Positions 2,053-31,470 of a DNA stretch of 31,470 nucleotides are shown here, in pieces. The translations under genes and the position numbers were made by a program. Position 1 is the first letter of the stretch. Each line of letters begins with the position of its first letter. Below the pieces are notes generated by a model that was not told the DNA's origin, did not search any database, and was given only the letters and a program-made list of their open reading frames with translations. The stretch comes from a virus (Duplodnaviria > Heunggongvirae > Uroviricota > Caudoviricetes): IMG/VR virus record IMGVR_UViG_2541047775_000008. One strand, given 5' to 3'.

Positions 2053-2229
2053 CTATTTTTTCGCGAGTTTTTCTTCGAGTTTTTTCTCAAGAACTGGATA
2101 GATAGCATCAAATAAGCGTGAAGCTCGGGTTTCTACAGGAACAGGCATTACTGATTGTTCAGTAAGTGCTCCGCCAATGACTGAACAGGTCTGCTCAAAA
2201 AGAAACTTGGTTTTTTCTAAATCATTCAT
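2053..2229 (-). CDS. Small reverse-oriented hypothetical protein, 58 aa
   Basis: ATG at 2229 (minus) preceded by AAGGA about 8 nt upstream. Convergent with the early operon. No homolog recalled. Confidence 0.45.
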   Translation of the reverse strand: MNDLEKTKFLFEQTCSVIGGALTEQSVMPVPVETRASRLFDAIYPVLEKKLEEKLAKK

Positions 2230-2346
2230 GTCGTTATTCCTTGTGTTACGAACTACTTGCTTACATTTGGAGTGAAAGCAATTGGATAGTACCACAAGAC
2301 CATGCGCCGGACATGGCTAAAAACCGGCTCTGTTTCAGGAGGAGTT

Positions 2347-2517
2347 ATGCAGGAACCTCGTTGTATTGCTCAGTTATTGCGTAACGAAAGCCCCAGGGCG
2401 ATTGACTTCACCATCACCCACGGGAAGGGACGCAAGGGAATCATTATCCGCACCAAAAAACAGAGTCCGTTAAAGAAGGCTCTGACCTTTCTGAAAAGCC
2501 GGAGGGTCTGGAAATGA
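2347..2517 (+). CDS. Hypothetical early protein, 56 aa
   Basis: Strong RBS AGGAGG 6 nt upstream of ATG 2347; stop overlaps B start (ATGA coupling). Confidence 0.5.
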   Translation: MQEPRCIAQLLRNESPRAIDFTITHGKGRKGIIIRTKKQSPLKKALTFLKSRRVWK

Positions 2518-3014
2518 CAGTGATGACGCTCAATCTCGTTGAAAAACAGCCAGCAGCTATGCGCCGGATAATTGGCAAGCATCTTGCCGTCCCTCGCTGG
2601 CAGGATACATGTGATTATTATAATCAGATGATGGAGCGCGAACGGCTAACGGTTTGCTTTCATGCACAGTTAAAACAGCGTCACGCAACGATGCGTTTTG
2701 AAGAAATGAACGACGTCGAACGTGAACGACTGGTATGTGCAATTGATGAATTGCGTGGCGCATTCTCAAAACGCCGTCAGGTTGGCGCAAGTGAGCATGC
2801 ATATATTAGTTTTTTAACAGTCAGTCAGCGTCGTACTTTATTTATGCACGCCGGATTGACAGAAAAAGAATTTAATCAGCCATACTGGCGAATTAATGAA
2901 GAGTCATGTTACTGGCGTGATGCTTTATTCCGTGCATTACGTGAATTATTCAGCCTGTTTGAGTATGCACCGACAATTCTGACGTCGGTAAAACCAGAGC
3001 AATATCTGCATTAA
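2514..3014 (+). CDS. B: B-like replication protein (P2 B is 166 aa and needed for lagging-strand synthesis), 166 aa
   Basis: Length identical to P2 B and position between cox and A; translationally coupled to upstream ORF. Confidence 0.7.
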   Translation: MTVMTLNLVEKQPAAMRRIIGKHLAVPRWQDTCDYYNQMMERERLTVCFHAQLKQRHATMRFEEMNDVERERLVCAIDELRGAFSKRRQVGASEHAYISFLTVSQRRTLFMHAGLTEKEFNQPYWRINEESCYWRDALFRALRELFSLFEYAPTILTSVKPEQYLH

Positions 3015-3077
3015 GTAATTAACCAGAGTTTTTAACGCACTTAATTGTGCGGGGCTTCTTTTTGCCTGGAGAAAGTC

Positions 3078-3302
3078 ATGCATACAGTTTCTGAAAATCA
3101 GTGCGGTATATACGCATTACTGCTGCAACAGGCCAGAACCGAAGCACAGGCCGACGCTGCGACGCGCTTTTCTTCTCATCTTGATGCCATGATTCGCCAC
3201 ATCACAAAGGCGGAGTTATCCCGCGTGGAGATAGTCGAGCTGCTCAGTCAGGAGTCGGAAAAATTTCACAATATCGGATTGTCTCGCGGGGAGGTGCTTT
3301 GA
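3078..3302 (+). CDS. Hypothetical early protein, 74 aa (position of P2 orf80)
   Basis: RBS GGAGAAAG upstream of ATG 3078; synteny. Confidence 0.55.
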
Positions 3303-3604
3303 TGTCCTGTTCTCGTTCAGTTGTATTACTGAATAACGCCCTAAAAATCGCCGTTATGAAAAATGGCGATTTGTCTCTTATTCAACTTGGTCTTGATAAA
3401 GAAAAACGCGAAATAACTGAGTCTGTTATCGCGATTTATCAGAACGAATTAAACCTCCTGTCTGATGTGGTCAATTTACTTGTTAAACGCGCTGTGTTTC
3501 ACAAGCAAATCTCCTCCGTGGATGAACTGACGAAATTAACGACAGAAATCGCCAGCTATTGCGCTGATGAATTTAAAAACCTTAACGACAAAAGGAACTG
3601 GTAA
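3302..3604 (+). CDS. Hypothetical early protein, 100 aa (position of P2 orf81)
   Basis: ATG overlapping upstream stop (TGATG); synteny. Confidence 0.55.
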   Translation: MSCSRSVVLLNNALKIAVMKNGDLSLIQLGLDKEKREITESVIAIYQNELNLLSDVVNLLVKRAVFHKQISSVDELTKLTTEIASYCADEFKNLNDKRNW

Positions 3605-3828
3605 TGCCGGACAACGTAGATTTCATTCAGGAACAACAGGCTGAATTACTGGAGCGTCAGATTAACGCGGCAAGGGTAAAACATTGCGGTGCTTCTGCGC
3701 TGGTTTGCGAAGAGTGTGACGCGCCAATACCTGCTGCCCGTCGTGCGGTTTATCCGTCAGCCACGCGTTGTGTTTCCTGCCAGTCAGTCTTTGAAGCAAA
3801 AAACAAGCATTACCGGAGAATGGCATGA
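3604..3828 (+). CDS. TraR/DksA-type C4 zinc-finger protein, 74 aa (position of P2 orf82)
   Basis: CEEC...(17 residues)...CVSC four-cysteine motif near the C-terminus; stop/start overlap TAATG with upstream gene. Confidence 0.7.
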   Translation: MPDNVDFIQEQQAELLERQINAARVKHCGASALVCEECDAPIPAARRAVYPSATRCVSCQSVFEAKNKHYRRMA

Positions 3829-4100
3829 GTATTCGTATTGAAATTGGCGAACGTTATGTCGTTACCAGTGACAGCTTTCAGTTTATTCTCCACGAGAAAA
3901 AGAGAGCGGAAAGCGGTAAAAACGCCGGTCAGGAATGGCTGGCGGTGGTTGGTTATTATCCGAAATTAAGCCAGCTCGTTTCCGGCCTGATGCATCACGA
4001 TATTCTGACCGGAAGCGCAAAGTCTTTTGCTGATTTAAACGCGCAGGTTGAGCAACTCAGCAGGCGTTGTTCAGAGGCTTTTGGCTCATATGGCCGTTAA
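3825..4100 (+). CDS. Hypothetical early protein, 91 aa (position of P2 orf83)
   Basis: RBS GGAG upstream of ATG 3825; overlaps start of A. Confidence 0.55.
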   Translation: MSIRIEIGERYVVTSDSFQFILHEKKRAESGKNAGQEWLAVVGYYPKLSQLVSGLMHHDILTGSAKSFADLNAQVEQLSRRCSEAFGSYGR

Positions 4101-6375
4101 AGCCTCCGGGCGTTTTGTCCCTCCTTCAGCATTTGCTGCAGGCACCGGTAAGGCGTTTACCGGTGCTTATGCATGGAACGCGCCACGCGAGGCCGTCGGG
4201 CGCGAAAGACCCCTTACACGTGACGAGATGCGTCAGGTGCAAGGTGTTTTATCCACGATTAACCGCCTGCCTTACTTTTTGCGTTCGCTGTTTACTTCAC
4301 GCTATGACTACATCCGGCGCAATAAAAGCCCGGTGCACGGGTTTTATTTCCTCACATCCACTTTTCAGCGTCGTTTATGGCCGCGCATTGAGCGCGTGAA
4401 TCAGCGCCATGAAATGAACACCGACGCGTCGTTGCTGTTTCTGGCAGAGCGTGACCATTATGCGCGTCTGCCGGGGATGAATGATAAGGAGCTGAAAAAG
4501 TTTGCCGCCCGTATTTCATCGCAGCTTTTCATGATGTATGAGGAACTCTGCGATGCCTGGGTGGATGCGCATGGCGAAAAAGAATCGCTGTTTACGGATG
4601 AGGCGCAGGCTCACCTCTATGGTCATGTTGCTGGCGCTGCACGTGCTTTCAATATTTCCCCTCTCTACTGGAAAAAATACCGTAAAGGACAGATGACCAC
4701 GAGGCAGGCATATTCTGCCATTGCCCGTCTGTTTAACGATGAGTGGTGGATTAGTCAGCTTAAAGGCCAGCGTATGCGCTGGCATGAAGCGTTACTGATA
4801 GCTGTCGGGGAGGTCAATAAAGACCGTTCTCCTTATGCCAGTAAACACGCCATTCGTGATGTGCGTGCGCGCCGCCAGGCAAATCTGGAATTTCTTAAAT
4901 CGTGTGACCTTGAAAACAGGGAAACCGGCGAGCGCATCGACCTTATCAGTAAGGTGATGGGCAGTATTTCTAATCCTGAAATTCGCCGGATGGAGCTGAT
5001 GAACACCATTGCCGGTATTGAGCGTTACGCCGCCGCAGAGGGTGATGTGGGGATGTTTATCACGCTGACCGCGCCGTCAAAGTATCACCCGACACGTCAG
5101 GTCGGAAAAGGCGAAAGAAAAACCGTCCAGCTTAATCACGGCTGGAATGATGAGGCATTTAATCCAAAGGATGCGCAGCGTTATCTCTGCCGTATCTGGA
5201 GCCTGATGCGCACGGCATTCAAGGATAATGATTTACAGGTCTACGGTTTGCGTGTCGTCGAGCCACACCACGACGGAACGCCGCACTGGCATATGATGCT
5301 TTTTTGTAATCCACGCCAGCGTAACCAGATTATCGAAATCATGCGTCGCTATGCGCTCAAAGAGGATGGTGACGAAAGAGGAGCCGCGCGAAACCGTTTT
5401 CAGGCAAAACACCTTAACCGGGGCGGTGCTGCGGGATATATCGCGAAATACATCTCAAAAAACATCGATGGCTATGCACTGGATGGTCAGCTCGATAACG
5501 ATACCGGCAGGCCGCTGAAAGACACAGCGGCGGCTGTTACCGCATGGGCGTCAACGTGGCGCATACCACAATTTAAAACGGTTGGCCTGCCGACAATGGG
5601 GGCTTACCGTGAACTACGCAAATTGCCTCGCGGCGTCAGCATTGCTGATGAGTTTGACGAGCGCGTCGAGGCTGCACGCGCCGCCGCAGACAGTGGTGAT
5701 TTTGCGTTGTATATCCGCGCGCAGGGTGGGGCAAATGTCCCGCGCGATTGTCAGACTGTCAGGGTCGCCCGTAGCCCGTCGGATGACGTTAACGAGTACG
5801 AGGAAGAGGTCGAGAGAGTGGTCGGCATTTACGCACCGCATCTCGGCGCGCGTCATATTCATATCACCAGAACGACGGAGTGGCGCATTGTGCCGAAAGT
5901 TCCGGTCGTTGAGCCTTTGACTTTAAAAAGCGGCATCGCCGCGCCTCGGAGTCCTGTCAATAACTGTGGAAAGCTCACCGGTGGTGATACTTCGTTACCG
6001 GCTCCCACACCTTCTGAGCACGCCGCAGCAGTGCTAAATCTGGTTGATGACGGTGTTATCGAATGGAATGACCCGGAGGTCGTGAGGACGCTCAGGGGTG
6101 CATTAAAACACGGCCTGAAAACACCAAATCGTCAGCAAAGAAACGGAAGTCCGTTAAAACCACATGAAATAGCACCGTCGGCCAGACTGACCCGGTCGGA
6201 ACGATTGCAAATTACCCGTATCCGCGTTGACCTTGCTCAGAACGGTATCAGGCCGCAGCGATGGGAGCTTGAGGCGCTGGCGCGTGGCGCGACCGTAAAT
6301 TATGACGGGAAAAAATTCACGTATCCGGTCGCTGATGAGTGGCCGGGATTCTCAACAGTAATGGCGCGGACATAA
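4090..6375 (+). CDS. A: Replication initiation protein A (rolling-circle nickase), 761 aa
   Basis: Sequence from MAVKASGRFVPPSAFAAGTGK onward matches what I recall of P2 gpA; length 761 aa equals P2 A. ORF-track start at 4048 is an upstream in-frame extension. Confidence 0.92.
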   Translation: MAVKASGRFVPPSAFAAGTGKAFTGAYAWNAPREAVGRERPLTRDEMRQVQGVLSTINRLPYFLRSLFTSRYDYIRRNKSPVHGFYFLTSTFQRRLWPRIERVNQRHEMNTDASLLFLAERDHYARLPGMNDKELKKFAARISSQLFMMYEELCDAWVDAHGEKESLFTDEAQAHLYGHVAGAARAFNISPLYWKKYRKGQMTTRQAYSAIARLFNDEWWISQLKGQRMRWHEALLIAVGEVNKDRSPYASKHAIRDVRARRQANLEFLKSCDLENRETGERIDLISKVMGSISNPEIRRMELMNTIAGIERYAAAEGDVGMFITLTAPSKYHPTRQVGKGERKTVQLNHGWNDEAFNPKDAQRYLCRIWSLMRTAFKDNDLQVYGLRVVEPHHDGTPHWHMMLFCNPRQRNQIIEIMRRYALKEDGDERGAARNRFQAKHLNRGGAAGYIAKYISKNIDGYALDGQLDNDTGRPLKDTAAAVTAWASTWRIPQFKTVGLPTMGAYRELRKLPRGVSIADEFDERVEAARAAADSGDFALYIRAQGGANVPRDCQTVRVARSPSDDVNEYEEEVERVVGIYAPHLGARHIHITRTTEWRIVPKVPVVEPLTLKSGIAAPRSPVNNCGKLTGGDTSLPAPTPSEHAAAVLNLVDDGVIEWNDPEVVRTLRGALKHGLKTPNRQQRNGSPLKPHEIAPSARLTRSERLQITRIRVDLAQNGIRPQRWELEALARGATVNYDGKKFTYPVADEWPGFSTVMART

Positions 6376-6827
6376 TGACAAAGATTCACAAAGTAAAGCT
6401 GCACGCAAAATATTTCGACCTTGTGCTGGAAGGAAAGAAACGCGCAGAGTTTCGGAAAAATGACCGTAATTATGAGCGCGGAGACACGTTGATTTTGCAT
6501 GAATGGGGGCAGGGTGTGTATACGGGGCGAAAGGTTGAAGCCCGGATAACAGATGTTACTGACCTGTCAGACTGGCTGGAAGATTATGTCTTGCTAAGTA
6601 TTGAGCTGCTTAATACAGGCGCATATGAGATTGTGAACTGGAAAGAACTTAGTGAGCGTGGTCTGGTATTCAGAATTAATCATGAAATTATGCATCAGCT
6701 CGGCCTTGCTGTTATGTATGAACCAGAGACGGGGATGTCTGGCGGGGCAATGGTTGCCACGGATGGAGCATGGAACTATTCAGATGAACAGATTGAGCGT
6801 GCAAAGCAAAACGGGTGGCTTGGATAA
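6375..6827 (+). CDS. ASCH/DUF3850-like domain protein, 150 aa
   Basis: N-terminal region KIHKVKLHAKYFDLVLEGKKRAEFRKNDRNYERGDTLILHEW fits the ASCH-like DUF3850 pattern. ATG overlaps A stop (TAATG). C-terminal 70 aa unassigned. Confidence 0.6.
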   Translation: MTKIHKVKLHAKYFDLVLEGKKRAEFRKNDRNYERGDTLILHEWGQGVYTGRKVEARITDVTDLSDWLEDYVLLSIELLNTGAYEIVNWKELSERGLVFRINHEIMHQLGLAVMYEPETGMSGGAMVATDGAWNYSDEQIERAKQNGWLG

Positions 6828-7030
6828 TGCACAGAATACCAGGCGAGATACCGCAACATAACACTAAAAATATCAAGCTGATGGCTATTGTTCACCGTCT
6901 ACAGCAGATTATGGTCAACGAAAATCTGACGCCCGACGAGTTGGTCGGGTGTGCCGAAATAGTCCGGGATAATTACGTGCGGTTTAACGATATAGAACAG
7001 TCTAAAATTGCACTGCTACCACGTTGTTGA
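6827..7030 (+). CDS. Hypothetical small protein, 67 aa
   Basis: ATG overlapping upstream stop (TAATG), suggesting translational coupling. No recognisable domain. Confidence 0.4.
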   Translation: MHRIPGEIPQHNTKNIKLMAIVHRLQQIMVNENLTPDELVGCAEIVRDNYVRFNDIEQSKIALLPRC

Positions 7031-7041
7031 TAGAAAACCCC

Positions 7042-7072
7042 AGCAGTACTGAAACATGCTTCCAGTGCTGCT
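7042..7072 (+). other. Stem-loop (10-bp stem with one G-U pair, 11-nt loop) at the backbone/cargo boundary
   Basis: AGCAGTACTG (7042..7051) pairs with CAGTGCTGCT (7063..7072), 12 nt after the stop at 7028..7030. No following U-tract. Confidence 0.3.
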
Positions 7073-7299
7073 GGAGGGAACAACGAACAGCGAGAGGTGG
7101 TAGTTGGCCATCATTTGAGTATCAGCATATGATTGGATTTATAACGGTTGGAAAGATTAATGTTGGTGAACTAATAAATTACAAATATTCACAAGAAGAT
7201 CTTATGTTACTAACATGAGTTTATGTGTAATATAGCTGTACATACCAATATCCGCTGTACCTTTGTTTTTATTTGGTTTGTCAGGTGTCACAGGTATGG

Positions 7300-7328
7300 T
7301 TGGCGTATGAGAATGGTTTATTTAAATT
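7300..7328 (+). promoter_or_regulatory. Candidate sigma70 promoter for the cargo gene
   Basis: TTGGCG (7300..7305), 17-bp spacer, TAAATT (7323..7328), about 30 nt upstream of ATG 7357. Hexamer choice is tentative in AT-rich DNA. Confidence 0.25.
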
Positions 7329-7356
7329 AAATATTGATTAAGGTTGAAAGAATGTC

Positions 7357-8253
7357 ATGAATAAAAGTAAAGCAATCTCAAGAATAGAGAGAGTGTTGAG
7401 AAGATTAAAGGATGGGAGTTTCACTGATAGTGATATTGATGTTCTTTTTGTTACGGCCCGTGAGTTGCCGAGTGCGCCCAAGTGTATTTTTGAAATTGGG
7501 AGTTTTGTTGCCCATAATCATCGGAGAGATCAAGGCGAGATAAAGGATATCATGCTGAGGAATCATTTGTTATTAAGTTTAAAATTTGGACGCGATAAGC
7601 ATGCTGTTAAACCAGAGTTAAATGAATACCCGAAATACTTACCTACATTAATCAGACTGCAATTAAGAATGTTCAGTGATGAGTTTTTAAAGGAGAAGTT
7701 AAACTTAAAGGGGGGGCAGGTAATTACAGCGAGGAAGAAGCTTAATAACAAGAAATCGTATATTGTTAATGATGGTGTTTGTAAGTTAACACCAGAAATT
7801 GGTTCCAATGAAGGGCGAATGATTAATGAAGCTTTGTCGTTACTCAATTGTTCTGACGCAATTAAGTTCGACTCTTTGTTTAATGAGCTGAAAATATTGC
7901 TTCGGAAGGAGATTCCAGGGGTGGACTTGATGCCGCTTGATAATAACAGGAGAGCAATAGCAGGCATCTTACTGTGTTTGTTGAATAATATTGATTTTTC
8001 TCTGATGCCTGAAGTCAAAGCAAAAACAGTCCTTAGTCTTAATGATGCAGATAAATCTGCAAATGTTTATGGTCAATATTATATAACACATGAAAAAGAG
8101 CCATTCACCGACGTGGCTATCATGAGCCCAGTGTTTCAGTCGGGGTATGATGTTAGTGACCTTTTTGATGAGCATGTGACAAATGAAAATATCGTAAATG
8201 GGGATGTCGAATTTAGTTTTGATTTGGGGAAAATAGTTGTGTCGAAATCATAG
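7357..8253 (+). CDS. Unassigned 298-aa protein on an AT-rich cargo island at the tin/old position; candidate anti-phage defence or other moron
   Basis: Long uninterrupted ORF in visibly AT-rich DNA (stop codons are frequent there, so a 298-codon ORF is unlikely by chance). Compositional break from flanking phage DNA. Location between A-proximal genes and cos. No motif I recognise. Confidence 0.75.
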   Translation: MNKSKAISRIERVLRRLKDGSFTDSDIDVLFVTARELPSAPKCIFEIGSFVAHNHRRDQGEIKDIMLRNHLLLSLKFGRDKHAVKPELNEYPKYLPTLIRLQLRMFSDEFLKEKLNLKGGQVITARKKLNNKKSYIVNDGVCKLTPEIGSNEGRMINEALSLLNCSDAIKFDSLFNELKILLRKEIPGVDLMPLDNNRRAIAGILLCLLNNIDFSLMPEVKAKTVLSLNDADKSANVYGQYYITHEKEPFTDVAIMSPVFQSGYDVSDLFDEHVTNENIVNGDVEFSFDLGKIVVSKS

Positions 8254-8293
8254 TTTAGACCCAAACGAGCACGTTCCTAATTTCCCTTCAATA

Positions 8294-8340
8294 CATGCAT
8301 TTAGTGCATGATTTTGCATGCGGCAGCGATCGTTTTTTAT
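8294..8340 (+). terminator. Possible terminator region downstream of the cargo gene
   Basis: Hairpin CATGCA (8294..8299) / TGCATG (8305..8310), then T-rich tract including TTTTTT at 8333..8338. Confidence 0.3.
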
Positions 8341-8416
8341 TGTTTATAATCGCCTGTATTGACGATGTTTTGATGTGTTATTGCAACTGCATTAAAAGCG
8401 CTCCATGAAGCGGGCG

Positions 8417-8435
8417 GGCGAGGCGGGGAAAGCAC
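8417..8435. other. Candidate cos site (19-nt cohesive end sequence)
   Basis: GGCGAGGCGGGGAAAGCAC matches my recollection of the P2 cohesive end; it lies in the GC-rich non-coding gap between the cargo gene and Q, where P2 cos is located. Confidence 0.5.
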
Positions 8436-8576
8436 TGCGCGCTGGCGGTGGTGCTGATTTTATTTTTTCAGCGTCTGAGCGCGTCGTGAAGGTGTTTACT
8501 TGGCCTGCTGGGGCGTTGGTGTGTCTGCGGGGTGTTTTGTGCGGTGGTGAGCGTGTGAGGGCGTGATGACGTGCTG

Positions 8577-8599
8577 TAAAAAAGCCGCCCGCAGGCGGC
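8577..8599 (-). terminator. Rho-independent terminator downstream of Q
   Basis: On the minus strand: GCCGCC-TGCG-GGCGGC hairpin followed by TTTTTT, immediately after the Q stop. Confidence 0.5.
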
Positions 8600-8604
8600 G
8601 ATGT

Positions 8605-9639
8605 TCAGCCGTTGTCAGTGTCCAGTGAGTAGTTTTTAAAGCGGATGACCTCCTGACCGAGCCAGCCGTTTATCTCGCGGATCCTGTCCTGTAACGGGAT
8701 AAGCTCATTGCGGACAAAGACCTTTGCCACTTTCTCAATATCACCCAGCGACCCGACGTTCTCCGGCTTGCCCCCCATCAACTGAAAGGGGATGCGGTGT
8801 GCGTCCAGCAGGTCAGCGGCGCTGGCTTTTTTGATATTAAAAAAATCGTCCTTCGTCGCCACTTCACTGAGCGGGATAATTTTAATGCCGTCGGCTTTCC
8901 CCTGCGGGGCATAGAGAAACAGATTTTTAAAGTTATTGCGGCCTTTCGACTTAACCATGTTTTCGCGAAGCATTTCGATATCGTTGCGATCCTGCACGGC
9001 ATCGGTGACGTACATGATGTATCCGGCATGTGCGCCATTTTCGTAATACTTTCGGCGGAACAGCGTGGCCGACTCATTCAGCCAGGCAGAATTAAGGGCG
9101 CTGAGATATTCCGGCAGGCCGTACAACTCCTGATTAATATCCGGCTCCAGCAGGTGAAACACGGAGCCGGGCGCGAAGGCTGTCGGTTCGTTGAAGGACG
9201 GCACCCACCAGTAAACATCCTCTTCCACCCCACGGCGGGTATATTTTGCCGGTGAGGTTTCCAGTCTGATGACCTTACCGGTGGTGCTGTAACGCTTTTC
9301 CAGAAACGCATTACCGAACACCAGAAAATCCAGCACAAAGCGGCTGAAATCCTGTTGCGAAAGCCACGGATGCGGGATAAATGTCGAGGCCAGAATATTG
9401 CGTTTAACGTAAATCGGTGAGCTGTGATGCACGGCAGCACGCAGGCTTTTTGCCAGACCGGTAAAGCTGACCGGCGGCTCATACCATCTGCCGTTACTGA
9501 TGCACTCGACGTAATCCAGAATGTCACGGCGGTCGAGTACCGGCACCGGCTCACCAAAGGTGAATGCCTCCATTTTCGGGGCGCTGGCGGTCATTGTTTT
9601 CACCGCTGGCTGCGGTGTTTTCCCTTTTTTCTTGCTCAT
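8605..9639 (-). CDS. Q: Portal protein Q, 344 aa
   Basis: Length identical to P2 Q; position next to cos; 1-nt overlap with P. Confidence 0.9.
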   Translation of the reverse strand: MSKKKGKTPQPAVKTMTASAPKMEAFTFGEPVPVLDRRDILDYVECISNGRWYEPPVSFTGLAKSLRAAVHHSSPIYVKRNILASTFIPHPWLSQQDFSRFVLDFLVFGNAFLEKRYSTTGKVIRLETSPAKYTRRGVEEDVYWWVPSFNEPTAFAPGSVFHLLEPDINQELYGLPEYLSALNSAWLNESATLFRRKYYENGAHAGYIMYVTDAVQDRNDIEMLRENMVKSKGRNNFKNLFLYAPQGKADGIKIIPLSEVATKDDFFNIKKASAADLLDAHRIPFQLMGGKPENVGSLGDIEKVAKVFVRNELIPLQDRIREINGWLGQEVIRFKNYSLDTDNG

Positions 9640-11411
9640 CAGTAAAACTCCAGAATGGTGGATGTCAGCGGGGTGCTGATACCGGCGGTGAGTGGCTCAT
9701 TTAACAGGGCATGCATGGTCGCCCAGGCGAGGTCGGCGTGGCTGGCTTCCTCGCTGCGGCTGGCCTCATAGGTGGCGCTGCGTCCGCTGCTGGTCATGGT
9801 CTTGCGGATAGCCATAAACGAGCTGGTGATGTCGGTGGCGCTGACGTCATATTCCAGACAGCCACGGCGGATGACGTCTTTTGCCTTGAGCACCATTGCG
9901 GTTTTCATTTCCGGCGTGTAGCGGATGTCGCGCGCGGCGGGATAGAACGAGCGCACGAGCTGGAACACGCCGACACCGAGGCCGGTGGCATCAATACCGA
10001 TGTATTCGACGTTGTATTTTTCGGTGAGTTTGCGGATGGATTCCGCCTGGGTGGCAAAGTCCATGCCTTTCCACTGGTGACGCTCAAGTATTCTGAATTT
10101 GCCACCGGCCACCACCGGCGGTGCCAGTACCACGCATCCGGCGCTGTCGCCACGGTGTGACGGGTCGTAACCAATCCATACCGGACGTGAGCCGAACGGA
10201 TTGGCGGCAAACGGCGCATAGTCTTCCCATTCTTCCAGCGTGTCGACCATGCAGCGTTGCAGCTCCTCGAACGGGAACACCGACGCCTTGTCGTCAACAA
10301 ATTCACACATGAACAGGTTTTTAAAATCGTCGGCGCTGTTTTCGCGTTTGAGCTGTTCAATGTCGAACAGCGTGCAGCCGCCTTTCAGGGCGTCCTCAAT
10401 GGTGACAATCTGCCGCCACTGACCGTCCGCACAGAGAAGCCCTCCGGCAAGGGCGTTATGACTGACGTCGATTTCCACGCGTTCAGCGGCGCTGGCGCGT
10501 CCCCGGTTGAACAGTTCACCCGACCAGAACGGGTAGGCGTCGTGCGCCAGCGTGGACGGGGTGGAGAAATAGGTCGAGCGCAGGTGACTCTGTGAGGCCA
10601 TACCTGATGCCACCTTACGCAGTACCTGAAAATTCGGGATCCAGAAAATCTCATCGACGTACAGGTCGCCGTTATGACTCTGTGCGGTGTTGGAGTTGGT
10701 GCCGAGAAAAATCAGTTTTGCGCCGTTATTGCCCAGGACAATCGGGTCACCGGTCAGGTCAACGTCAACCAGACGGGCAAAGGCGATGATGTATTCACGG
10801 AATACATACGCCTGCGTTTTACTGGCCGACAGAAAAATCTGGTTATGACCGGTTTTCAGGGCGCGCAGCAGCGCCTCGCGGGAAAAATAAAACGTTGCGC
10901 CAATCTGACGGGATTTCAGGATATCGCGGATGCGGTGCTCAAGCCCGGCGCGATACCAGTGCAACTGATAGTCGAAAGACTGCTCAAAGAAAATCTGCTC
11001 CAGCTTTTCGATGGCCTCGTCACTGAAAAAATTCTTTTTCGGTTTGCGCCGCCCGCCTTTGTTGCGGTTAGCGACGTTCGGATTAAGGTCTGCCTCGTTG
11101 CCGGTCTGGCTGTAACGATTTACCCGTGCCAGTCGTTCAATCTGGCGTCCCAGCAGGTCAATTTCCTTGAAGTCACCGCCGGTTTTCTGCGGTTTGATGA
11201 TGAGCTGGGTCAGTCGCGCTTCCAGACTCATTTCGACACGGCTGATGGGGGCAACGCTGTCCCAGCCGTCGCGCTGTTTCCAGCTCTGCACCGTCGGGCG
11301 TTTCATCTGCAACATGGCGGCAATCTGCGGCACGGAAAACCCCTGCCAGTACAGCAGCGCCGCCTGACGACGCGGGTCGTGTAAAAGAGTGGTGTCTGTG
11401 GTGATGGTCAT
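9639..11411 (-). CDS. P: Terminase large (ATPase) subunit P, 590 aa
   Basis: Start MTITTDTTLLHD at 11411 with RBS GAGG; length equals P2 P. ORF-track start at 11441 is an extension. Confidence 0.9.
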   Translation of the reverse strand: MTITTDTTLLHDPRRQAALLYWQGFSVPQIAAMLQMKRPTVQSWKQRDGWDSVAPISRVEMSLEARLTQLIIKPQKTGGDFKEIDLLGRQIERLARVNRYSQTGNEADLNPNVANRNKGGRRKPKKNFFSDEAIEKLEQIFFEQSFDYQLHWYRAGLEHRIRDILKSRQIGATFYFSREALLRALKTGHNQIFLSASKTQAYVFREYIIAFARLVDVDLTGDPIVLGNNGAKLIFLGTNSNTAQSHNGDLYVDEIFWIPNFQVLRKVASGMASQSHLRSTYFSTPSTLAHDAYPFWSGELFNRGRASAAERVEIDVSHNALAGGLLCADGQWRQIVTIEDALKGGCTLFDIEQLKRENSADDFKNLFMCEFVDDKASVFPFEELQRCMVDTLEEWEDYAPFAANPFGSRPVWIGYDPSHRGDSAGCVVLAPPVVAGGKFRILERHQWKGMDFATQAESIRKLTEKYNVEYIGIDATGLGVGVFQLVRSFYPAARDIRYTPEMKTAMVLKAKDVIRRGCLEYDVSATDITSSFMAIRKTMTSSGRSATYEASRSEEASHADLAWATMHALLNEPLTAGISTPLTSTILEFY

Positions 11412-11479
11412 GAATACCTCGCCGTGATGAATACACGGCAAGGCTACTGAGTCGCGCCCCGCGATTCGCTAAGGTGCTG

Positions 11480-17845: not shown

Positions 17846-18481
17846 ATGAACACACTCGCAAATATTCAGGAACTCGCGCGCGCACTGCGCAACATGATCC
17901 GCACCGGCATTATCGTCGAAACCGACCTTAACGCCGGTCGCTGCCGTGTGCAGACCGGCGGCATGTGCACCGACTGGCTTCAGTGGCTGACCCATCGCGC
18001 CGGACGTTCGCGCACATGGTGGGCACCTTCCGTGGGGGAACAGGTGCTGATTCTGGCCGTGGGCGGTGAACTCGACACGGCGTTCGTTCTGCCGGGGATT
18101 TATTCCGGCGATAACCGCGCGCCGTCTGCGTCGGCGGATGCCCTGCATATCCGTTTCCCTGACGGGGCGGTGATTGAGTATGAACCCGAAACCAGTGCAC
18201 TCACGGTAAGCGGAATTAAAACGGCCAGCGTGACGGCTTCTGATTCTGTTACTGCCACGGTACCGGTGGTCACGGTGAAAGCGTCAACCCGTGTCACCCT
18301 GGACACACCGGAAGTGGTCTGCACTAACAAACTGACTACCGGCACGCTGGAAGTGCAGAAGGGTGGGACGATGCGCGGCAACATTGAACACACCGGCGGT
18401 GAACTCTCATCAAACGGTAAGGTACTGCATACCCACAAACACCCCGGCGACAGCGGCGGAACAACCGGGAGTCCTTTATGA
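17846..18481 (+). CDS. V: Baseplate spike / hub protein V, 211 aa
   Basis: Length and synteny as P2 V. Confidence 0.85.
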   Translation: MNTLANIQELARALRNMIRTGIIVETDLNAGRCRVQTGGMCTDWLQWLTHRAGRSRTWWAPSVGEQVLILAVGGELDTAFVLPGIYSGDNRAPSASADALHIRFPDGAVIEYEPETSALTVSGIKTASVTASDSVTATVPVVTVKASTRVTLDTPEVVCTNKLTTGTLEVQKGGTMRGNIEHTGGELSSNGKVLHTHKHPGDSGGTTGSPL

Positions 18482-18825
18482 CAGCGCGTTATCTCGGAAT
18501 GAATCGCAGTGATGGCCTGACTGTCACTGACCTTGAGCATATCAGCCAGAGTATCGGCGATATCCTGCGCACACCGGTCGGCTCACGGGTGATGCGTCGT
18601 GATTACGGCTCGTTGCTGGCATCAATGATTGACCAGCCGCAGACCCAGGCGCTTGAGTTGCAGATTAAGGTCGCCTGTTACATGGCGGTGCTGAAATGGG
18701 AACCCCGCGTCACCCTGTCATCCGTCACTACGGCGCGCAGTTTTGACGGGCGAATGACGGTCACGTTAACCGGCCAGCACAACGACACCGGCCAGCCACT
18801 TTCGTTAACCATCCCTGTGAGTTGA
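18478..18825 (+). CDS. W: Baseplate wedge protein W (gp25-like), 115 aa
   Basis: Length and synteny as P2 W. Confidence 0.85.
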   Translation: MTARYLGMNRSDGLTVTDLEHISQSIGDILRTPVGSRVMRRDYGSLLASMIDQPQTQALELQIKVACYMAVLKWEPRVTLSSVTTARSFDGRMTVTLTGQHNDTGQPLSLTIPVS

Positions 18826-19738: not shown

Positions 19739-20342
19739 TTCGCGCCTGCTGCCGACCGGCTCATCACCACTTGAAGTCGCCGCCGCAAAAGCCTGTGCGG
19801 AAATTGAAAAAACGCCGGTCAGTATTCGTGAGCTGTGGAACCCGGATACCTGTCCGGCAAATCTGCTGCCGTGGCTGGCGTGGTCATTTTCGGTTGACCG
19901 CTGGGATGATAAGTGGCCGGAAGCGACAAAACGCGCTGTTATCCGCGATGCGTATTTCATTCACTGCCATAAGGGCACTATTGGTGCGATTCGCCGTGTG
20001 GTGGAGCCGCTCGGATATCTGATTGAGGTGAGGGAGTGGTGGCAGCTCAACGAGGAGCCGGGGACGTTCCGCATCGTTGTTGGCGTGCTTGAGCAGGGTA
20101 TTACCGAAGAAATGTATCAGGAGCTGGAGCGCCTCGTTGCTGATGCAAAACCGGCGAGCCGCCATCTGACGGGACTGGCTATCAGTTTAAGTACAACCGG
20201 CAACATTTTTGCCGGTGCGGGATGCTATCACGGTGACGCCCTGACGGTTTATCCCTACACCCCGGAGGCCATTATTGTCGGAGGGGATTATTTCCCGGCC
20301 TCGGCCATTCATTTAATTGATAACCTGAGAGTAAACGCATGA
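19731..20342 (+). CDS. I: Baseplate protein I, 203 aa
   Basis: N-terminus MSDSRLLPTGSSPLEVAAAKACAEIEK resembles P2 gpI; synteny. Confidence 0.85.
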   Translation: MSDSRLLPTGSSPLEVAAAKACAEIEKTPVSIRELWNPDTCPANLLPWLAWSFSVDRWDDKWPEATKRAVIRDAYFIHCHKGTIGAIRRVVEPLGYLIEVREWWQLNEEPGTFRIVVGVLEQGITEEMYQELERLVADAKPASRHLTGLAISLSTTGNIFAGAGCYHGDALTVYPYTPEAIIVGGDYFPASAIHLIDNLRVNA

Positions 20343-21535
20343 CAGTGAAATACTACGCCATTCTGACTAATCAGGGCGCAGCACGGCTGGCTAACGCGAC
20401 GATGCTCGGCAGTAAGCTGAATCTGACGCAAATGGCCGTTGGTGATGCGAATGGTGTCTTGCCGACACCAGACCCGGCACAGACAAAACTGATTAATCAG
20501 AAACGCATTGCACCGCTGAATCTTCTGAGTGTTGACCCGAACAACCAGAGCCAGATTATTGCGGAGCAAATCATCCCTGAGAACGAGGGCGGATTCTGGA
20601 TCCGTGAGATTGGGCTTTATGATGATGAAGGCGTACTCATTGCGGTGGCGAACTGCCCGGAAACGTACAAACCGCAGTTGCAGGAAGGCAGTGGTCGTAC
20701 CCAGACTATCCGCATGATTCTGGTTGTCACGAATACCGAAGCTATTACGCTGAAAATCGACCCGTCGGTGGTACTGGCGACCCGTAAATACGTGGATGAT
20801 GAAGTCCTGGAATTAAGGCTGTATGTGGATGACCAGATGAGAAAACACATTGCCGCACAGGACCCTCATACCCAGTATGCACAGAAACATAATCCGACAT
20901 TTACCGGAGAACCAAAAGCGCCGACGCCTGCCGCAGGAAATAACACCACGCGGATTGCGACCACTGAGTTTGTTCAGGCTGCTATTACCGCTCTGATTAA
21001 CGGCGCGCCTGCCACGCTGGATACACTGAAAGAAATTGCCGCAGCCATTAACAATGACCCGAAATTCAGCACCACCATTAACAATGCGCTGGCAGGTAAA
21101 CAACCGCTGGACAATACGCTGACTCATTTGAGTGGAAAGGATGTTGCCGGTCTTCTCGCATACCTTGGTTTGGGAGAGGCGGCAAAACGGGATGTGGGCA
21201 CAGGGGGGAATCAGATCCCGGATATGGGTAGTTTTGAATTCAGGAATGAACTGAATGAAGGATATGTACGGTTTCCTCAGAAATGGATGCTGCAATGGAA
21301 GAAAGTCTCTATTCCTGCAGCATCTGGTACTAAAGGGGCTACAGTATCAGCAAACTATTTAATCCCGTTCACATTAACGGTTATTGGGTCATGGGCCAAC
21401 GTTGAAAGCCGCACCATTAACGTGGCGGCGAGTCCGTTTGTCAGTGCATCTAATAACAATCTTTCTTCATTTCTTGCAACCAGTACATATACATCCAGCC
21501 AACTGGAAGTAATGGTGTATTCAATAGGGCGTTAA
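20339..21535 (+). CDS. H: Tail fibre protein H, 398 aa; constant N-terminal part joined to the currently expressed variable C-terminal cassette
   Basis: N-terminus resembles P2 gpH / Mu S (AVGDANGVLPTP...GGFWIREIGLYDDEGVLIAVAN). An inversion crossover site lies inside the gene at 21153..21178. Confidence 0.85.
   Translation: MTVKYYAILTNQGAARLANATMLGSKLNLTQMAVGDANGVLPTPDPAQTKLINQKRIAPLNLLSVDPNNQSQIIAEQIIPENEGGFWIREIGLYDDEGVLIAVANCPETYKPQLQEGSGRTQTIRMILVVTNTEAITLKIDPSVVLATRKYVDDEVLELRLYVDDQMRKHIAAQDPHTQYAQKHNPTFTGEPKAPTPAAGNNTTRIATTEFVQAAITALINGAPATLDTLKEIAAAINNDPKFSTTINNALAGKQPLDNTLTHLSGKDVAGLLAYLGLGEAAKRDVGTGGNQIPDMGSFEFRNELNEGYVRFPQKWMLQWKKVSIPAASGTKGATVSANYLIPFTLTVIGSWANVESRTINVAASPFVSASNNNLSSFLATSTYTSSQLEVMVYSIGR
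21153..21178. repeat. Left crossover site of the tail-fibre inversion (cix/gix-like, 26 bp)
   Basis: TTCTCGCATACCTTGGTTTGGGAGAG; its right half TTGGTTTGGGAGA is identical to the reverse complement of the site at 22996..23021. Confidence 0.6.
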
Positions 21536-21537
21536 TT

Positions 21538-21975
21538 ATGGAATTTTTATGGTCTCCCGCAAACCTGTCATTTTTTCCCGAGTCCCTAATACAGGAATAT
21601 ATCGATGCTGGCTGGGATTTATCAGATGCCGTTGCAATCAGCGATACCGTAAGAGCGGAATACGGTGGTGTATGGCCGCAGGGGAAAATTCTCTCCAGCG
21701 TGAATGGAATGCCAGCCTGGGCTGATATTCCACCGCCAACTCATGAGGAACAAATTGCCGCAGCCGAACTGGAAAAGCAGCAATTGATTGATCGGGTCAA
21801 CGAATACATAAACAGTAAGCAATGGCCTGGTAAAGCGGCGATTGGTCGTCTGAAAGGTGAGGAACTGGCACAATATAATTTGTGGCTGGATTATCTGGAT
21901 GCACTGGAAATGGTCGATATTTCCAGTGCTCCAGATATTGAATGGCCTACGCCTCCGGTAGTTCAGGCCAGATGA
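21538..21975 (+). CDS. G: Tail fibre assembly chaperone G, 145 aa (expressed orientation)
   Basis: Directly downstream of H; C-terminal motif DYLDALEMVDISSAPDIEWP is shared with the inverted paralog. Confidence 0.8.
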   Translation: MEFLWSPANLSFFPESLIQEYIDAGWDLSDAVAISDTVRAEYGGVWPQGKILSSVNGMPAWADIPPPTHEEQIAAAELEKQQLIDRVNEYINSKQWPGKAAIGRLKGEELAQYNLWLDYLDALEMVDISSAPDIEWPTPPVVQAR

Positions 21976-22549
21976 CATCCGGCGCGGTGCTGGTATCTGT
22001 TGCCACCACCGCGTCAATGTAATCCAGCACGGCGTTAAGTCGGGTTGTTTCTGCCAGCGTCAACTTCCGTCCGGCCTGTAATTTCAGCTGAATCAGACTA
22101 ATGGAAGCCATTGCTGCATCAATCAGTGACTGGCGCTGTGCTTCTGCCGCGTCTACTGCGGCACTATGCTGTGCCTCAGTATCCGTCACCCATTTCTCAC
22201 CATCCCATTTATCATATGGCGTTAACGGGGCGATAGTGGTTGTATTTTCAGGGTAATCACCCGGAGCTGTGATTTCTTTCGATTCTCCTGTTTCGGTGCT
22301 ATAGATGATTTCACCGCGATGGTCTGGCACATATTCCCATGAGTTAAAATCTGCAGAACGGCAGATTGCATAACCAGCTTTATGTGTAACTGGTGCATCT
22401 AAACAAGAACATGCCGGGATACCGACGCCAACCGCAAGATATTCAGTTGATGTGGAAATATATTCCCGCGTTTCACCATCATAATTATAAACGGTTATGT
22501 CTCCCGCTTTTATGGCAATGAGTTCGTTATTTAATACGGCTTTATTCAT
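21947..22549 (-). CDS. Alternative tail fibre assembly chaperone G', 200 aa (silent orientation)
   Basis: Convergent with G; C-terminus LDYIDAVVATDTSTAPDVIWP is homologous to the G C-terminus; 3' ends overlap by 29 bp. Confidence 0.75.
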   Translation of the reverse strand: MNKAVLNNELIAIKAGDITVYNYDGETREYISTSTEYLAVGVGIPACSCLDAPVTHKAGYAICRSADFNSWEYVPDHRGEIIYSTETGESKEITAPGDYPENTTTIAPLTPYDKWDGEKWVTDTEAQHSAAVDAAEAQRQSLIDAAMASISLIQLKLQAGRKLTLAETTRLNAVLDYIDAVVATDTSTAPDVIWPELPEA

Positions 22550-23021
22550 CAGGCAGCCCTCACGATATAATTAAAGGCAATGTTACGAGGTCGGTTTTCG
22601 TTTGCAGTTGGAACAACTCTGGAAGCATCGAATGTTACTCGCTTTGCATAACCACCGTTAATTGAATCAGATGAAGCAGCTCCGATGACGCTGGTTGTAA
22701 AAGCGCCAGAATCAGAAGGATAGGTATTAAACCTGACATCCACTAATGCACCAATTATATTTCGAATGGCATCGCCCTGTGATGAAAGCAAGCTACGGCT
22801 AGTATCTATTCCTCTTCCGTCATCCCAGCCACGAATAAACTCACCGCGTAAATCAGGCAATTTATTTGTCGGGTAAACTTTTGCCAGTTCCGGATACTCT
22901 TCGGCAGAAAAAGGCGCACCGTTGCATTTCAGCCAGCCTGTTGGCGGAGTGGCTGAAGGCCACGGAACAGGCACCCCAACAGGTAATGCAGAACCTTCTC
23001 CCAAACCAACGTTTATGAAAA
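22549..23021 (-). CDS. Alternative tail-fibre variable C-terminal cassette H' (promoterless, silent until inversion)
   Basis: Minus-strand ORF whose 5' end coincides with the right crossover site; would read ...LGLGEGSALPVG... after fusion to the H constant part. Typical tail-fibre C-terminal character. Confidence 0.7.
22996..23021. repeat. Right crossover site of the tail-fibre inversion (cix/gix-like, 26 bp)
   Basis: TTCTCCCAAACCAACGTTTATGAAAA; inverted relative to the site at 21153..21178. Confidence 0.6.
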
Positions 23022-23076
23022 TGCAGAGATAACGGGCAAGTGGCATCATCTCCGGTTTTTATTCAGGGGGATGCTC

Positions 23077-23670
23077 ATGCTTATTGGCTATGTACGCGTG
23101 TCAACAAATGACCAGAACACGGAATTGCAGCGTAACGCGCTGGAGTGCGCAGGATGTGAGCTGATTTTTGAGGATAAAATCAGCGGCACGAAGTCCGACA
23201 GGCCGGGGCTGAAAAAACTGCTCAGGACATTATCGGAGGGGGATACACTGGTAGTCTGGAAGCTGGACCGGCTGGGGCGTAGTATGCGGCATCTGGTCAT
23301 TCTGGTTGAGGAGCTGCGCGAACGCGGCATTAATTTTCGCAGCCTGACGGATGCCATTGATACCAGCACGCCGATGGGGCGTTTTTTCTTTCATGTGATG
23401 GGTGCCCTGGCTGAAATGGAGCGAGAACTCATTGTCGAGCGGACACGCGCCGGACTGGAAGCGGCCAGAGCTAAAGGTCGTATTGGTGGCAGGCGTCCGA
23501 AACTCACCGCGAGTGAGTGGGAGCAGGCCGGGCGGTTGCTGGCTGCAGGGGAATCACGTCAACGCGTGGCACTGATTTTTGATATTGGCCTGTCCACGCT
23601 CTATAAAAAATTCCCCGCCTCAGTGACAAAAAATAAATTGTGTCATCCCTTAGCCAACCGGGACAAATAG
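23077..23670 (+). CDS. Serine DNA invertase (Gin/Cin/Pin/Hin family), 197 aa
   Basis: N-terminus MLIGYVRVSTNDQNTELQRNAL with the catalytic serine motif; resolvase-like core; C-terminal HTH; RBS GGGGG upstream. Confidence 0.9.
   Translation: MLIGYVRVSTNDQNTELQRNALECAGCELIFEDKISGTKSDRPGLKKLLRTLSEGDTLVVWKLDRLGRSMRHLVILVEELRERGINFRSLTDAIDTSTPMGRFFFHVMGALAEMERELIVERTRAGLEAARAKGRIGGRRPKLTASEWEQAGRLLAAGESRQRVALIFDIGLSTLYKKFPASVTKNKLCHPLANRDK
23638..23656 (+). promoter_or_regulatory. Candidate late-promoter upstream element for the FI operon, located inside the 3' end of the invertase gene
   Basis: TTGTGTCA-N7-GCCA, the same motif as at 11480..11498, about 75-90 bp upstream of the FI ATG. Confidence 0.3.
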
Positions 23671-30487: not shown

Positions 30488-30567
30488 TCCTCAATTTGCC
30501 TGCTGCTTAATGCATTGCAGATGATTTGCTTCCGTTATACTAGCGTCAGTTGATAGCGGGAGTATTT

Positions 30568-31470
30568 ATGAATCAATCTTATGGACGGCTGGTCAGTCGG
30601 GCGGCGATTGCTGCAACGGCGATGGCTTCACTGCTATTGCTGATTAAAATTTTTGCATGGTGGTATACCGGGTCGGTGAGTATTCTCGCCGCGCTGGTGG
30701 ATTCGCTGGTGGATATCGGCGCGTCGTTGACGAATTTACTGGTGGTGCGATATTCCCTGCAACCTGCCGACGATAATCACTCGTTTGGTCACGGTAAAGC
30801 TGAGTCCCTCGCGGCGCTGGCGCAAAGTATGTTTATCTCCGGTTCGGCACTATTCCTCTTTTTGACGGGTATTCAACATCTGATATCTCCAACACCGATG
30901 ACAGATCCAGGCGTCGGGGTTATCGTGACAATTGTGGCGCTAATTTGTACGATTATCCTTGTCTCGTTTCAGCGGTGGGTGGTGCGCCGGACGCAAAGCC
31001 AGGCGGTGCGGGCTGATATGCTACATTACCAGTCTGATGTTATGATGAACGGCGCAATTCTGCTGGCGCTGGGGTTGTCCTGGTACGGCTGGCATCGCGC
31101 CGATGCTCTGTTTGCATTGGGAATCGGCATCTATATTTTATATAGCGCGTTACGCATGGGATATGAGGCGGTACAGTCATTACTGGATCGCGCATTACCT
31201 GATGAGGAACGGCAAGAAATTATTGATATCGTGACTTCCTGGCCGGGTGTTAGCGGCGCTCACGATCTTCGCACGCGGCAGTCAGGGCCGACCCGCTTTA
31301 TTCAGATTCATTTGGAAATGGAAGACTCTCTGCCTTTGGTTCAGGCACATATGGTGGCGGATCAGGTAGAGCAGGCTATTTTACGGCGTTTTCCGGGATC
31401 GGATGTGATTATCCATCAGGACCCCTGTTCCGTCGTACCCAGGGAGGGTAAACGGTCTATGCTTTCATAA
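30568..31470 (+). CDS. fieF: Host cation diffusion facilitator family Fe/Zn efflux transporter FieF (YiiP), 300 aa
   Basis: Protein [49 protein letters not shown]... matches what I recall of E. coli FieF; six TM helices followed by a cytoplasmic domain. Confidence 0.92.

Follow-up and report, generated by a model that had tools for sequence, protein, structure and literature searches.

The DNA stretch analysed here (IMG/VR record IMGVR_UViG_2541047775_000008; 31,470 nt, hereafter the window) carries a P2-like prophage, in which one open reading frame (ORF) at 7357..8253 on the plus strand encodes a protein of 298 amino acids (aa). The surrounding order is gpA (4090..6375), an orf91-like gene, the 298-aa gene, cos and the portal gene (8605..9639); the gene is thus found between gene A/orf91 and the portal gene Q and adjoins cos, the position known as the gpA-Q hotspot. 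The same coding sequence was called in Escherichia coli XH989 by the Prokaryotic Genome Annotation Pipeline (PGAP), as hypothetical protein WP_001043197.1, and the frame, length and terminal residues given in a first-pass annotation of the window were confirmed. Over 6000..9000, the window is matched by the XH989 chromosome at 100% identity, and the P2-like prophage in XH989 adjoins cpxP; at the far end of the window, the ORF 30550..31470 is a cation-efflux gene, which we take to be the host gene fieF from the gene order of E. coli K-12. We describe the interval as a moron of a single gene, lying in the cos-proximal gpA-Q hotspot of a P2-like prophage whose integration site is between cpxP and fieF. 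The coordinates of all features are collected in Table 1.

The boundaries of the cargo were determined from homology and from base composition. Homology of the backbone to other P2-like phages stops at ~7104 (at 7222 against phage 9W) and restarts at ~8376, and a step in GC content falls at the same points: the enclosed island of 1,271 bp has a GC content of 0.36, computed from the window, against 0.519 in the flank with gene A and its neighbours (4090..7104) and 0.558 on the portal/terminase side (8376..11441). The third-position GC content (GC3) follows the same pattern, being 0.37 in the cargo ORF, 0.55 in gpA and 0.65 in the portal gene. The first-pass annotation had spread the cargo over 7031..8604; its single gene and its AT-rich break with the backbone were borne out, the latter being sharp when computed, but its extent was not, as the homology breakpoints place the true island at 7105..8375. 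Aligned with reference P2 (NC_001895), the window loses homology at 6595 and regains it on the cos side at 8388..8435, corresponding to P2 33546..33593, and the annotated P2 cosR sequence GGCGAGGCGGGGAAAGCAC is matched exactly at the end of this segment. The interval therefore replaces the tin-old block of P2, which is likewise AT-rich (GC 0.34), and the earlier assignment of the slot to the tin/old site between gene A and cos holds. In other P2-like phages, different genes occupy the space between the same breakpoints. Foreign composition and these breakpoints together support the horizontal acquisition that had been proposed. Because homology to P2 orf91 breaks off within the gene at 6595, the C-terminal part of the orf91-like gene is already variable; this gene joins a DUF3850/ASCH domain (PUA-like, an RNA-binding-type fold) to DUF7415. 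Screening of the island for Rfam RNA families, tandem repeats or repeat arrays, a second gene and an antitoxin found none.

The regulatory elements suggested earlier for this interval fared less well. The upstream stem-loop is real and strong (7038..7077; -24.3 kcal/mol, z = -5.1 against shuffled sequences), but it has no U-tract and lies inside the region common to P2-like phages, so that it is conserved backbone outside the island rather than a flank of it. It closes the A-orf91 block, immediately ahead of where the cargo starts in various P2-like phages, and could be a recombination-boundary mark or a transcriptional insulator. The downstream hairpin, read before as a hairpin with a T-tract, consists of a 7-bp stem followed by ATTTT and is weak and terminator-like; the folding energy of its region (z = +0.33) is no better than that of shuffled sequence. 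Five promoter-like hexamers were counted against 4.2 expected, which is the chance level, and the claim that the gene has its own promoter is not supported statistically.

Sequence searches placed the 298-aa protein in a large family of unassigned proteins. Scans against Pfam, NCBIfam and PADLOC (PADLOC-DB 2.0.0) gave no match, in line with the first reading that the protein holds no recognisable domain. BLASTP found no similarity to P2 Tin (254 aa; E ≥ 1.3) or to P2 Old (E ≥ 0.3), and with the empty domain scans this agrees with the view that the protein is unrelated to Old, Tin or structural proteins. The hidden Markov model of phrog_29586, a family of unknown function, matched residues 1-298 of 298 (E = 7.9e-212, 702.5 bits). 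An indexed search of 5.8 billion proteins returned 34-38 clusters of ~297 aa with 42-99% identity, all from Enterobacterales and all unnamed. When 1.84 billion cluster representatives were searched exhaustively with a profile, 434 proteins passed E ≤ 1e-3 and 129 passed E ≤ 1e-10; almost all are 290-340 aa long and aligned across most of their length. Members are conserved over the full length at identities between 99% and ~20%, and the family counts at least 434 clusters (at 50% identity) in Proteobacteria; 130 of 133 diverse members of this superfamily also matched phrog_29586. A tblastn search at E ≤ 0.01 against 50,697 deposited phage genomes, virulent phages and NC_001895 included, found no relative. 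Pairwise ratios of nonsynonymous to synonymous substitution (dN/dS, omega) were 0.07-0.29, with omega = 0.10 for an unsaturated pair (dS = 0.56); therefore, the 298-aa ORF is a real gene under purifying selection. The alternative that this is AT-rich junk DNA with a spurious or decaying ORF, for which the missing domain match and the lack of a supported promoter could speak, is refuted by the conservation over at least 434 clusters, by omega of ~0.1 and by a confident fold prediction.

That prediction was made with AlphaFold2 on a 36-sequence alignment, and the model is confident (predicted local distance difference test score 91.6, predicted template modelling score 0.86). In the model, a five-helix N-terminal domain (aa 1-94) is followed by a segment of three helices and a beta-hairpin (aa 95-148), a helical linker (aa 149-210) and a C-terminal beta-sheet domain (aa 211-298) whose strands lie within 213-295. 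Mean pairwise identity in the close family decreases over these four segments from N to C (64%, 59%, 49% and 42%); across the superfamily it is 34% in the N-terminal domain and ~20% in the remaining segments. Omega is 0.04-0.09 in the N-terminal domain, the most constrained part, and 0.17-0.30 in the more relaxed C-terminal domain. Among the 133 diverse members, R35, H53 and G60 are invariant, position 46 is E or D and position 57 is R or K in 100%, and A52 and F22 are nearly invariant; the superfamily consensus reads F-R-E-x-[AG]-D-F-V-A-H-N-D-x-R-[DN]-x-G. As judged from this conservation, the E46/H53/R57/G60 motif may form, with R35, a putative catalytic or ligand pocket.

The segment aa 95-148 has helices at 95-103, 108-115 and 119-129 and strands at 135-138 and 141-144 in the model, that is, the three-helix core with a beta-hairpin wing of winged-helix topology. 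It also holds an HTH-like (helix-turn-helix-like) sequence pattern, FLKEKLNLKGGQVITARKKL, and carries a net charge of +6 (superfamily mean +4.9), and the modelled layout suggests that it is a putative nucleic-acid-binding module of winged-helix-like type. The C-terminal domain (aa 211-298) has a net charge of -9 (mean -4.3) and is a putative specificity or sensor domain. Searches of PDB sequences with the close-family and superfamily profiles gave sub-threshold matches only (BLM, E = 1; the Rex winged HTH, E = 0.08). A flavoprotein loop in the PDB (E = 0.5) resembling the AH..R..G motif was taken as probably a chance match. Neither a solved structure nor a known family resembling the protein was found. 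Membership in the HEPN RNases was rejected because a conserved Rx4-6H motif is absent from the superfamily, as it had been from the first reading of the single protein; the invariant residues are spaced H-x3-R.

The distribution of the gene was followed in genomes and contigs. Among complete E. coli genomes it was found in 25 of 5,426, in the chromosome every time and at ≥ 99% identity, and all 25 copies share one arrangement, gpA - DUF3850 - hypothetical - gene - portal. Since 2,159 E. coli genomes have some P2-like backbone match at the locus, the gene is carried by ~1.2% of these. The gpA-portal slot was further surveyed in Klebsiella, Salmonella, Dickeya and Citrobacter-type hosts and in other viral contigs. 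Every examined relative from enterobacteria or IMG/VR (35-100% identity) lies between gpA (with or without DinI) and portal/terminase, on the gpA strand, and the slot is kept even where gpA and portal are themselves only ~35% identical. The co-resident genes at the enterobacterial loci are variable or lacking (a CoiA-like nuclease, a 183-aa ORF, or ORFs of 243 and 90 aa), and the regions upstream of the homologues differ in length and content. At one locus (L022, 6916..9855; GCA_964063365.1, OZ061329.1), the prophage has been reduced to fragments of gpA (276 aa) and portal (131 aa) flanked by housekeeping genes (panBCD, can, hpt and the gut operon), and the 295-aa homologue is intact; a second locus (L023) resembles it, in that its portal gene is truncated, its terminase is missing and its cargo gene is intact.

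Two side observations were made on the E. coli copies of this region. An IS903B element (IS5-like) lies within the equivalent of 6300..8700, outside the intact cargo ORF, in NZ_CP104595.1 (EC9952) and NZ_AP045796.1 (23CRST029). About nine complete E. coli chromosomes start exactly at the start codon of gene A (window 4090), e.g. NZ_CP060933.1, NZ_CP124429.1 and NZ_OY754407.1 (match at record 2211..4611); these are probably assemblies rotated to gene A instead of dnaA, an orientation artefact.

A more distant branch of the superfamily (~20-25% identity, ~327 aa) was found in Colwellia, Vibrio, Cellvibrionaceae, Ketobacter, Pseudomonas, Marinobacter, Rhizobiales and Trinickia, and the presence of copies up to 88% identical in separate genera indicates horizontal transfer. 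At five of these loci (L017, 7515..9547; L026; L029-L031), the homologue lies between the baseplate genes W/J and V/D on the opposite strand; a further locus (L028) shows the same ORF layout, with the gpD match alone confirmed. These loci are the tail modules of other P2-type prophages and contain homologues of the window's own baseplate genes, and the V/D-W/J gap is a second cargo site of the same superfamily in P2-type prophages. The window's own V (17846..18481) and W (18478..18825) overlap and have no insert. Other members adjoin a Schlafen/AlbA_2 protein, an HNH endonuclease or an integrase fragment, and some lie in islands with reverse transcriptase, methylases and integrases. On an Acinetobacter pittii plasmid, a member stands between an HTH gene and BrnT/BrnA with DUF4747, and on Psychrobacter pA21BP1, a MobA/MobL plasmid of 5.3 kb without an annotated replication gene, a 303-aa member (2351..3262) is one of four genes. 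A role of this homologue as replication protein (Rep) was rejected for the superfamily, since the Acinetobacter plasmid carries Rep genes of its own and P2 elements use gpA. All-against-all BLASTP of the neighbours at nine distant loci found no shared neighbour, and no conserved partner gene or RNA of the kind expected for a toxin-antitoxin or multi-gene operon was found. A neighbour is conserved nowhere, so the gene acts alone; the 298-aa gene is cargo and is organised as a stand-alone unit.

The gene has already been listed in two catalogues. Good descriptions of the gpA-Q hotspot exist (Rousset et al., 2022, PMC9122126; Moura de Sousa et al., 2026, PMC13586616), and many contents of the P2 hotspots were experimentally shown to be defence systems (Rousset et al., 2022, PMC9122126). 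The accession of the protein is present in the locus table of that study, and a protein differing by 1-2 residues is P2-hotspot system 75 in its Table S5B, with 53 occurrences and no domain or comment (PMC9122126). Table S10 of DefensePredictor (DeWeirdt, Mahoney and Laub, Science 2026, PMC13092281) includes WP_001043197.1 with a log-odds of ~4.6 and labels it 'Putative novel defense gene / Predicted novel defense gene'. The literature text searched for the accession WP_001043197.1 and for the motif strings gave no match, and the supplements of the preprint by Mordret et al. (2025) do not contain the accession. Although catalogued and predicted, the gene is therefore uncharacterised, as the first-pass annotation had called it, and it is not newly noticed. 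Collectively, these results support the description of the gene as horizontally acquired cargo in an experimentally validated P2 gpA-Q defence hotspot.

What the cargo does can be argued from its pattern of occurrence. A foreign, stand-alone and mobile gene in the defence hotspots of temperate phages, in plasmids and in islands, absent from virulent phages, under purifying selection and kept in decayed prophages, is the pattern expected of an anti-phage or exclusion gene. We therefore favour, at about even chances, the reading that the protein is a stand-alone anti-phage or inter-element exclusion factor made of a single polypeptide, which the prophage expresses and by which the lysogen is protected; a defence role fits the genomic context, the mobility, the stand-alone organisation, the retention in decayed prophages and the machine-learning prediction. 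In such a factor, the conserved N-terminal helical domain with its R35/E46/H53/R57/G60 pocket would be the effector, working either as an enzyme or as a site that binds a ligand or phosphate; the basic winged-helix-like middle segment would bind nucleic acid; and the acidic, fast-evolving C-terminal beta domain would set specificity, through recognition of a phage component or through auto-inhibition. We infer defence function, DNA binding and this division of labour among the domains as candidate properties. A bolder version, in which the superfamily is a new single-polypeptide immunity family with a fold absent from solved structures, a new effector pocket, a winged-helix sensor, a hypervariable acidic domain and a two-site P2 module, is put forward tentatively, as possible rather than probable.

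Several points weigh against a defence role. No known defence domain was detected: the protein found nothing in PADLOC-DB at E ≤ 1, and Pfam and PADLOC gave no consistent match over the 133 superfamily members. No catalytic fold was recognised for the protein, and the winged-helix call rests on topology, charge and sub-threshold matches. What surrounds the distant members resembles defence loci only loosely. Partition systems and toxins are examples of cargo in P2 hotspots that does not serve defence, and the systems cloned in the hotspot study (Table S2, PMC9122126) do not include the 298-aa protein. Table S10 of DefensePredictor, drawn from 3,000 E. coli genomes, lists 1,041 clusters that are predicted and uncharacterised; it is not a validation list (PMC13092281). 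The gene is a good but not exceptional candidate among the roughly one thousand predicted in E. coli.

Among the alternatives, a DNA-binding regulator or lysogenic-conversion factor, which would act on the transcription of host or prophage or on some other host trait and confer a benefit other than immunity, survives best, though we consider it unlikely. The sole fold hints are to HTH and winged-helix regulators, the middle segment is basic, non-defence cargo is known from the P2 hotspots, and retention in a decayed prophage would suit any function that benefits the host. The best-conserved part of the protein, however, is the N-terminal domain with its Arg/Glu/His/Arg residues, which is more like an active site, and not the HTH-like segment; neither a cognate target gene nor a conserved neighbour is present; and both the spread over phages, plasmids and islands in many genera, which is typical of defence or addiction cargo, and the DefensePredictor score of the gene as defensive point away from a regulator.

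A gene serving the phage itself, either as counter-defence (anti-restriction or anti-immune) or as an accessory of the lytic cycle of P2-type phages, is slightly less likely again. It would account for the shared strand with the early gene A operon and for the tight association of the family with P2-type phages at two different sites, and the acidic C-terminal domain could in principle mimic nucleic acid. Yet the deposited phage genomes, virulent ones included, gave no relative by tblastn, the E. coli genomes with a P2-like backbone match mostly do without the gene (only ~1.2% carry it), members occur also on small plasmids and non-phage islands, and the gene stays intact where the prophage has decayed. 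With 298 aa in three or four segments, the protein is also large for an anti-defence protein, and anti-defence genes were found in only 28 of 1,511 P2 elements (Moura de Sousa et al., 2026, PMC13586616).

We regard it as improbable that the gene is a selfish module of the addiction or toxin kind, serving to stabilise the element and not to defend against phages; a toxin whose cis-encoded antitoxin or RNA went unrecognised would be an example. The member next to BrnT/BrnA on a small plasmid, the retention in a decayed prophage and the AT-rich, horizontally mobile nature of the gene would suit such a module, but no partner ORF is conserved, the island holds no repeat array or Rfam RNA, and the upstream regions of the homologues vary in length and content.

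Apart from the cargo island, the window contains an invertible tail-fibre (host-range) segment at 20339..23670, whose components are included in Table 1.

Table 1. Features of the cargo island, its protein-coding gene, the adjoining backbone and the tail-fibre segment in the window
Feature	Position	Strand	Basis or remark
AT-rich cargo island	7105..8375	.	Homology breakpoints against P2-like phages and coincident GC step
Cargo gene, 298 aa (WP_001043197.1; phrog_29586; Rousset 2022 P2 system 75)	7357..8253	+	ORF, PGAP, omega ~0.1
N-terminal helical domain, aa 1-94, best conserved, holding all superfamily-invariant polar residues	7357..7638	+	Model, identity, omega
Signature motif E46-x6-H53-x3-R57-x2-G60 (FRExADFVAHNDxRDxG)	7492..7536	+	Conservation in 133 members
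Basic winged-helix-like segment, aa 95-148	7639..7800	+	Three helices and beta-hairpin in the model
Helical linker, aa 149-210	7801..7986	+	Model, segment identity
Acidic C-terminal beta-sheet domain, aa 211-298, fastest-evolving	7987..8250	+	Model, identity 42%, charge, omega
Weak terminator-like hairpin 3' of the cargo gene	8294..8310	+	7-bp stem and ATTTT; shuffles not beaten
Backbone gene, orf91-like, DUF3850/ASCH and DUF7415; context, not cargo	6375..6827	+	Domain and family matches, PGAP
Small backbone ORF (phrog_11386; WP_021517479); context only	6815..7030	+	Family match, PGAP
Strong stem-loop after backbone ORF 6815..7030, part of the backbone	7038..7077	+	Folding energy, shared region
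P2 cos cohesive-end sequence, right-hand backbone beyond the island	8417..8435	+	Exact match to NC_001895 cosR
Tail-fibre gene H	20339..21535	+	
Caudo_TAP chaperone	21538..21975	+	
Second chaperone	21947..22549	-	
Alternative fibre C-terminus with tail-collar domain	22549..23049	-	
25-nt inverted repeat	21153..21177 and 22997..23021		
Gin-type DNA invertase gene	23071..23670		E = 7e-95 to PDB 3uj3

If a defence function is shown, the protein would represent a family unrelated to any described system, with an unseen fold and active-site motif, and would illustrate that P2-type phages carry one cargo family at two insertion sites; if it is not defensive, it would be one more hotspot gene without an assigned role. 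The family is widespread in either case, with at least 434 clusters at 50% identity in prophages, plasmids and genomic islands of Proteobacteria, and the small size, the stand-alone nature and the clear invariant residues of the protein make it an easy experimental target.

Compared with known systems, the gene comes closest in its setting to the validated single-gene systems of the gpA-Q hotspot (Rousset et al., 2022; e.g. a DUF4238 protein active against T7) and to Tin, with which it shares the slot adjoining cos and the character of a single AT-rich prophage gene swapped between otherwise similar P2-like genomes. It differs from them in that its protein has neither similarity to Tin nor a PADLOC match and in its orientation, which is opposite to that of P2 tin and old. 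P2 Old, a lysogenic-conversion exclusion gene, occupies the same hotspot in reference P2, but it encodes 587 aa with an ATPase and a Toprim domain, whereas the cargo protein of 298 aa has neither, as judged from the empty Pfam and PADLOC scans. The HEPN proteins of AbiD/AbiF type and those of Las1-type HEPN fold are single-protein abortive-infection factors combining a helical effector with a sensor, from which the cargo protein is set apart by lacking Rx4-6H. To the N-terminal domain of Rex, the MarR family and the XRE/HipB HTH proteins, the likeness consists of the three helices with a beta-hairpin, the basic segment and the HTH-like pattern. The phrog_29586, system 75 and Table S10 records concern the same protein or family and are catalogue entries only; the extent of the superfamily, its motif, its domain layout and its second insertion site were worked out here and go beyond them.

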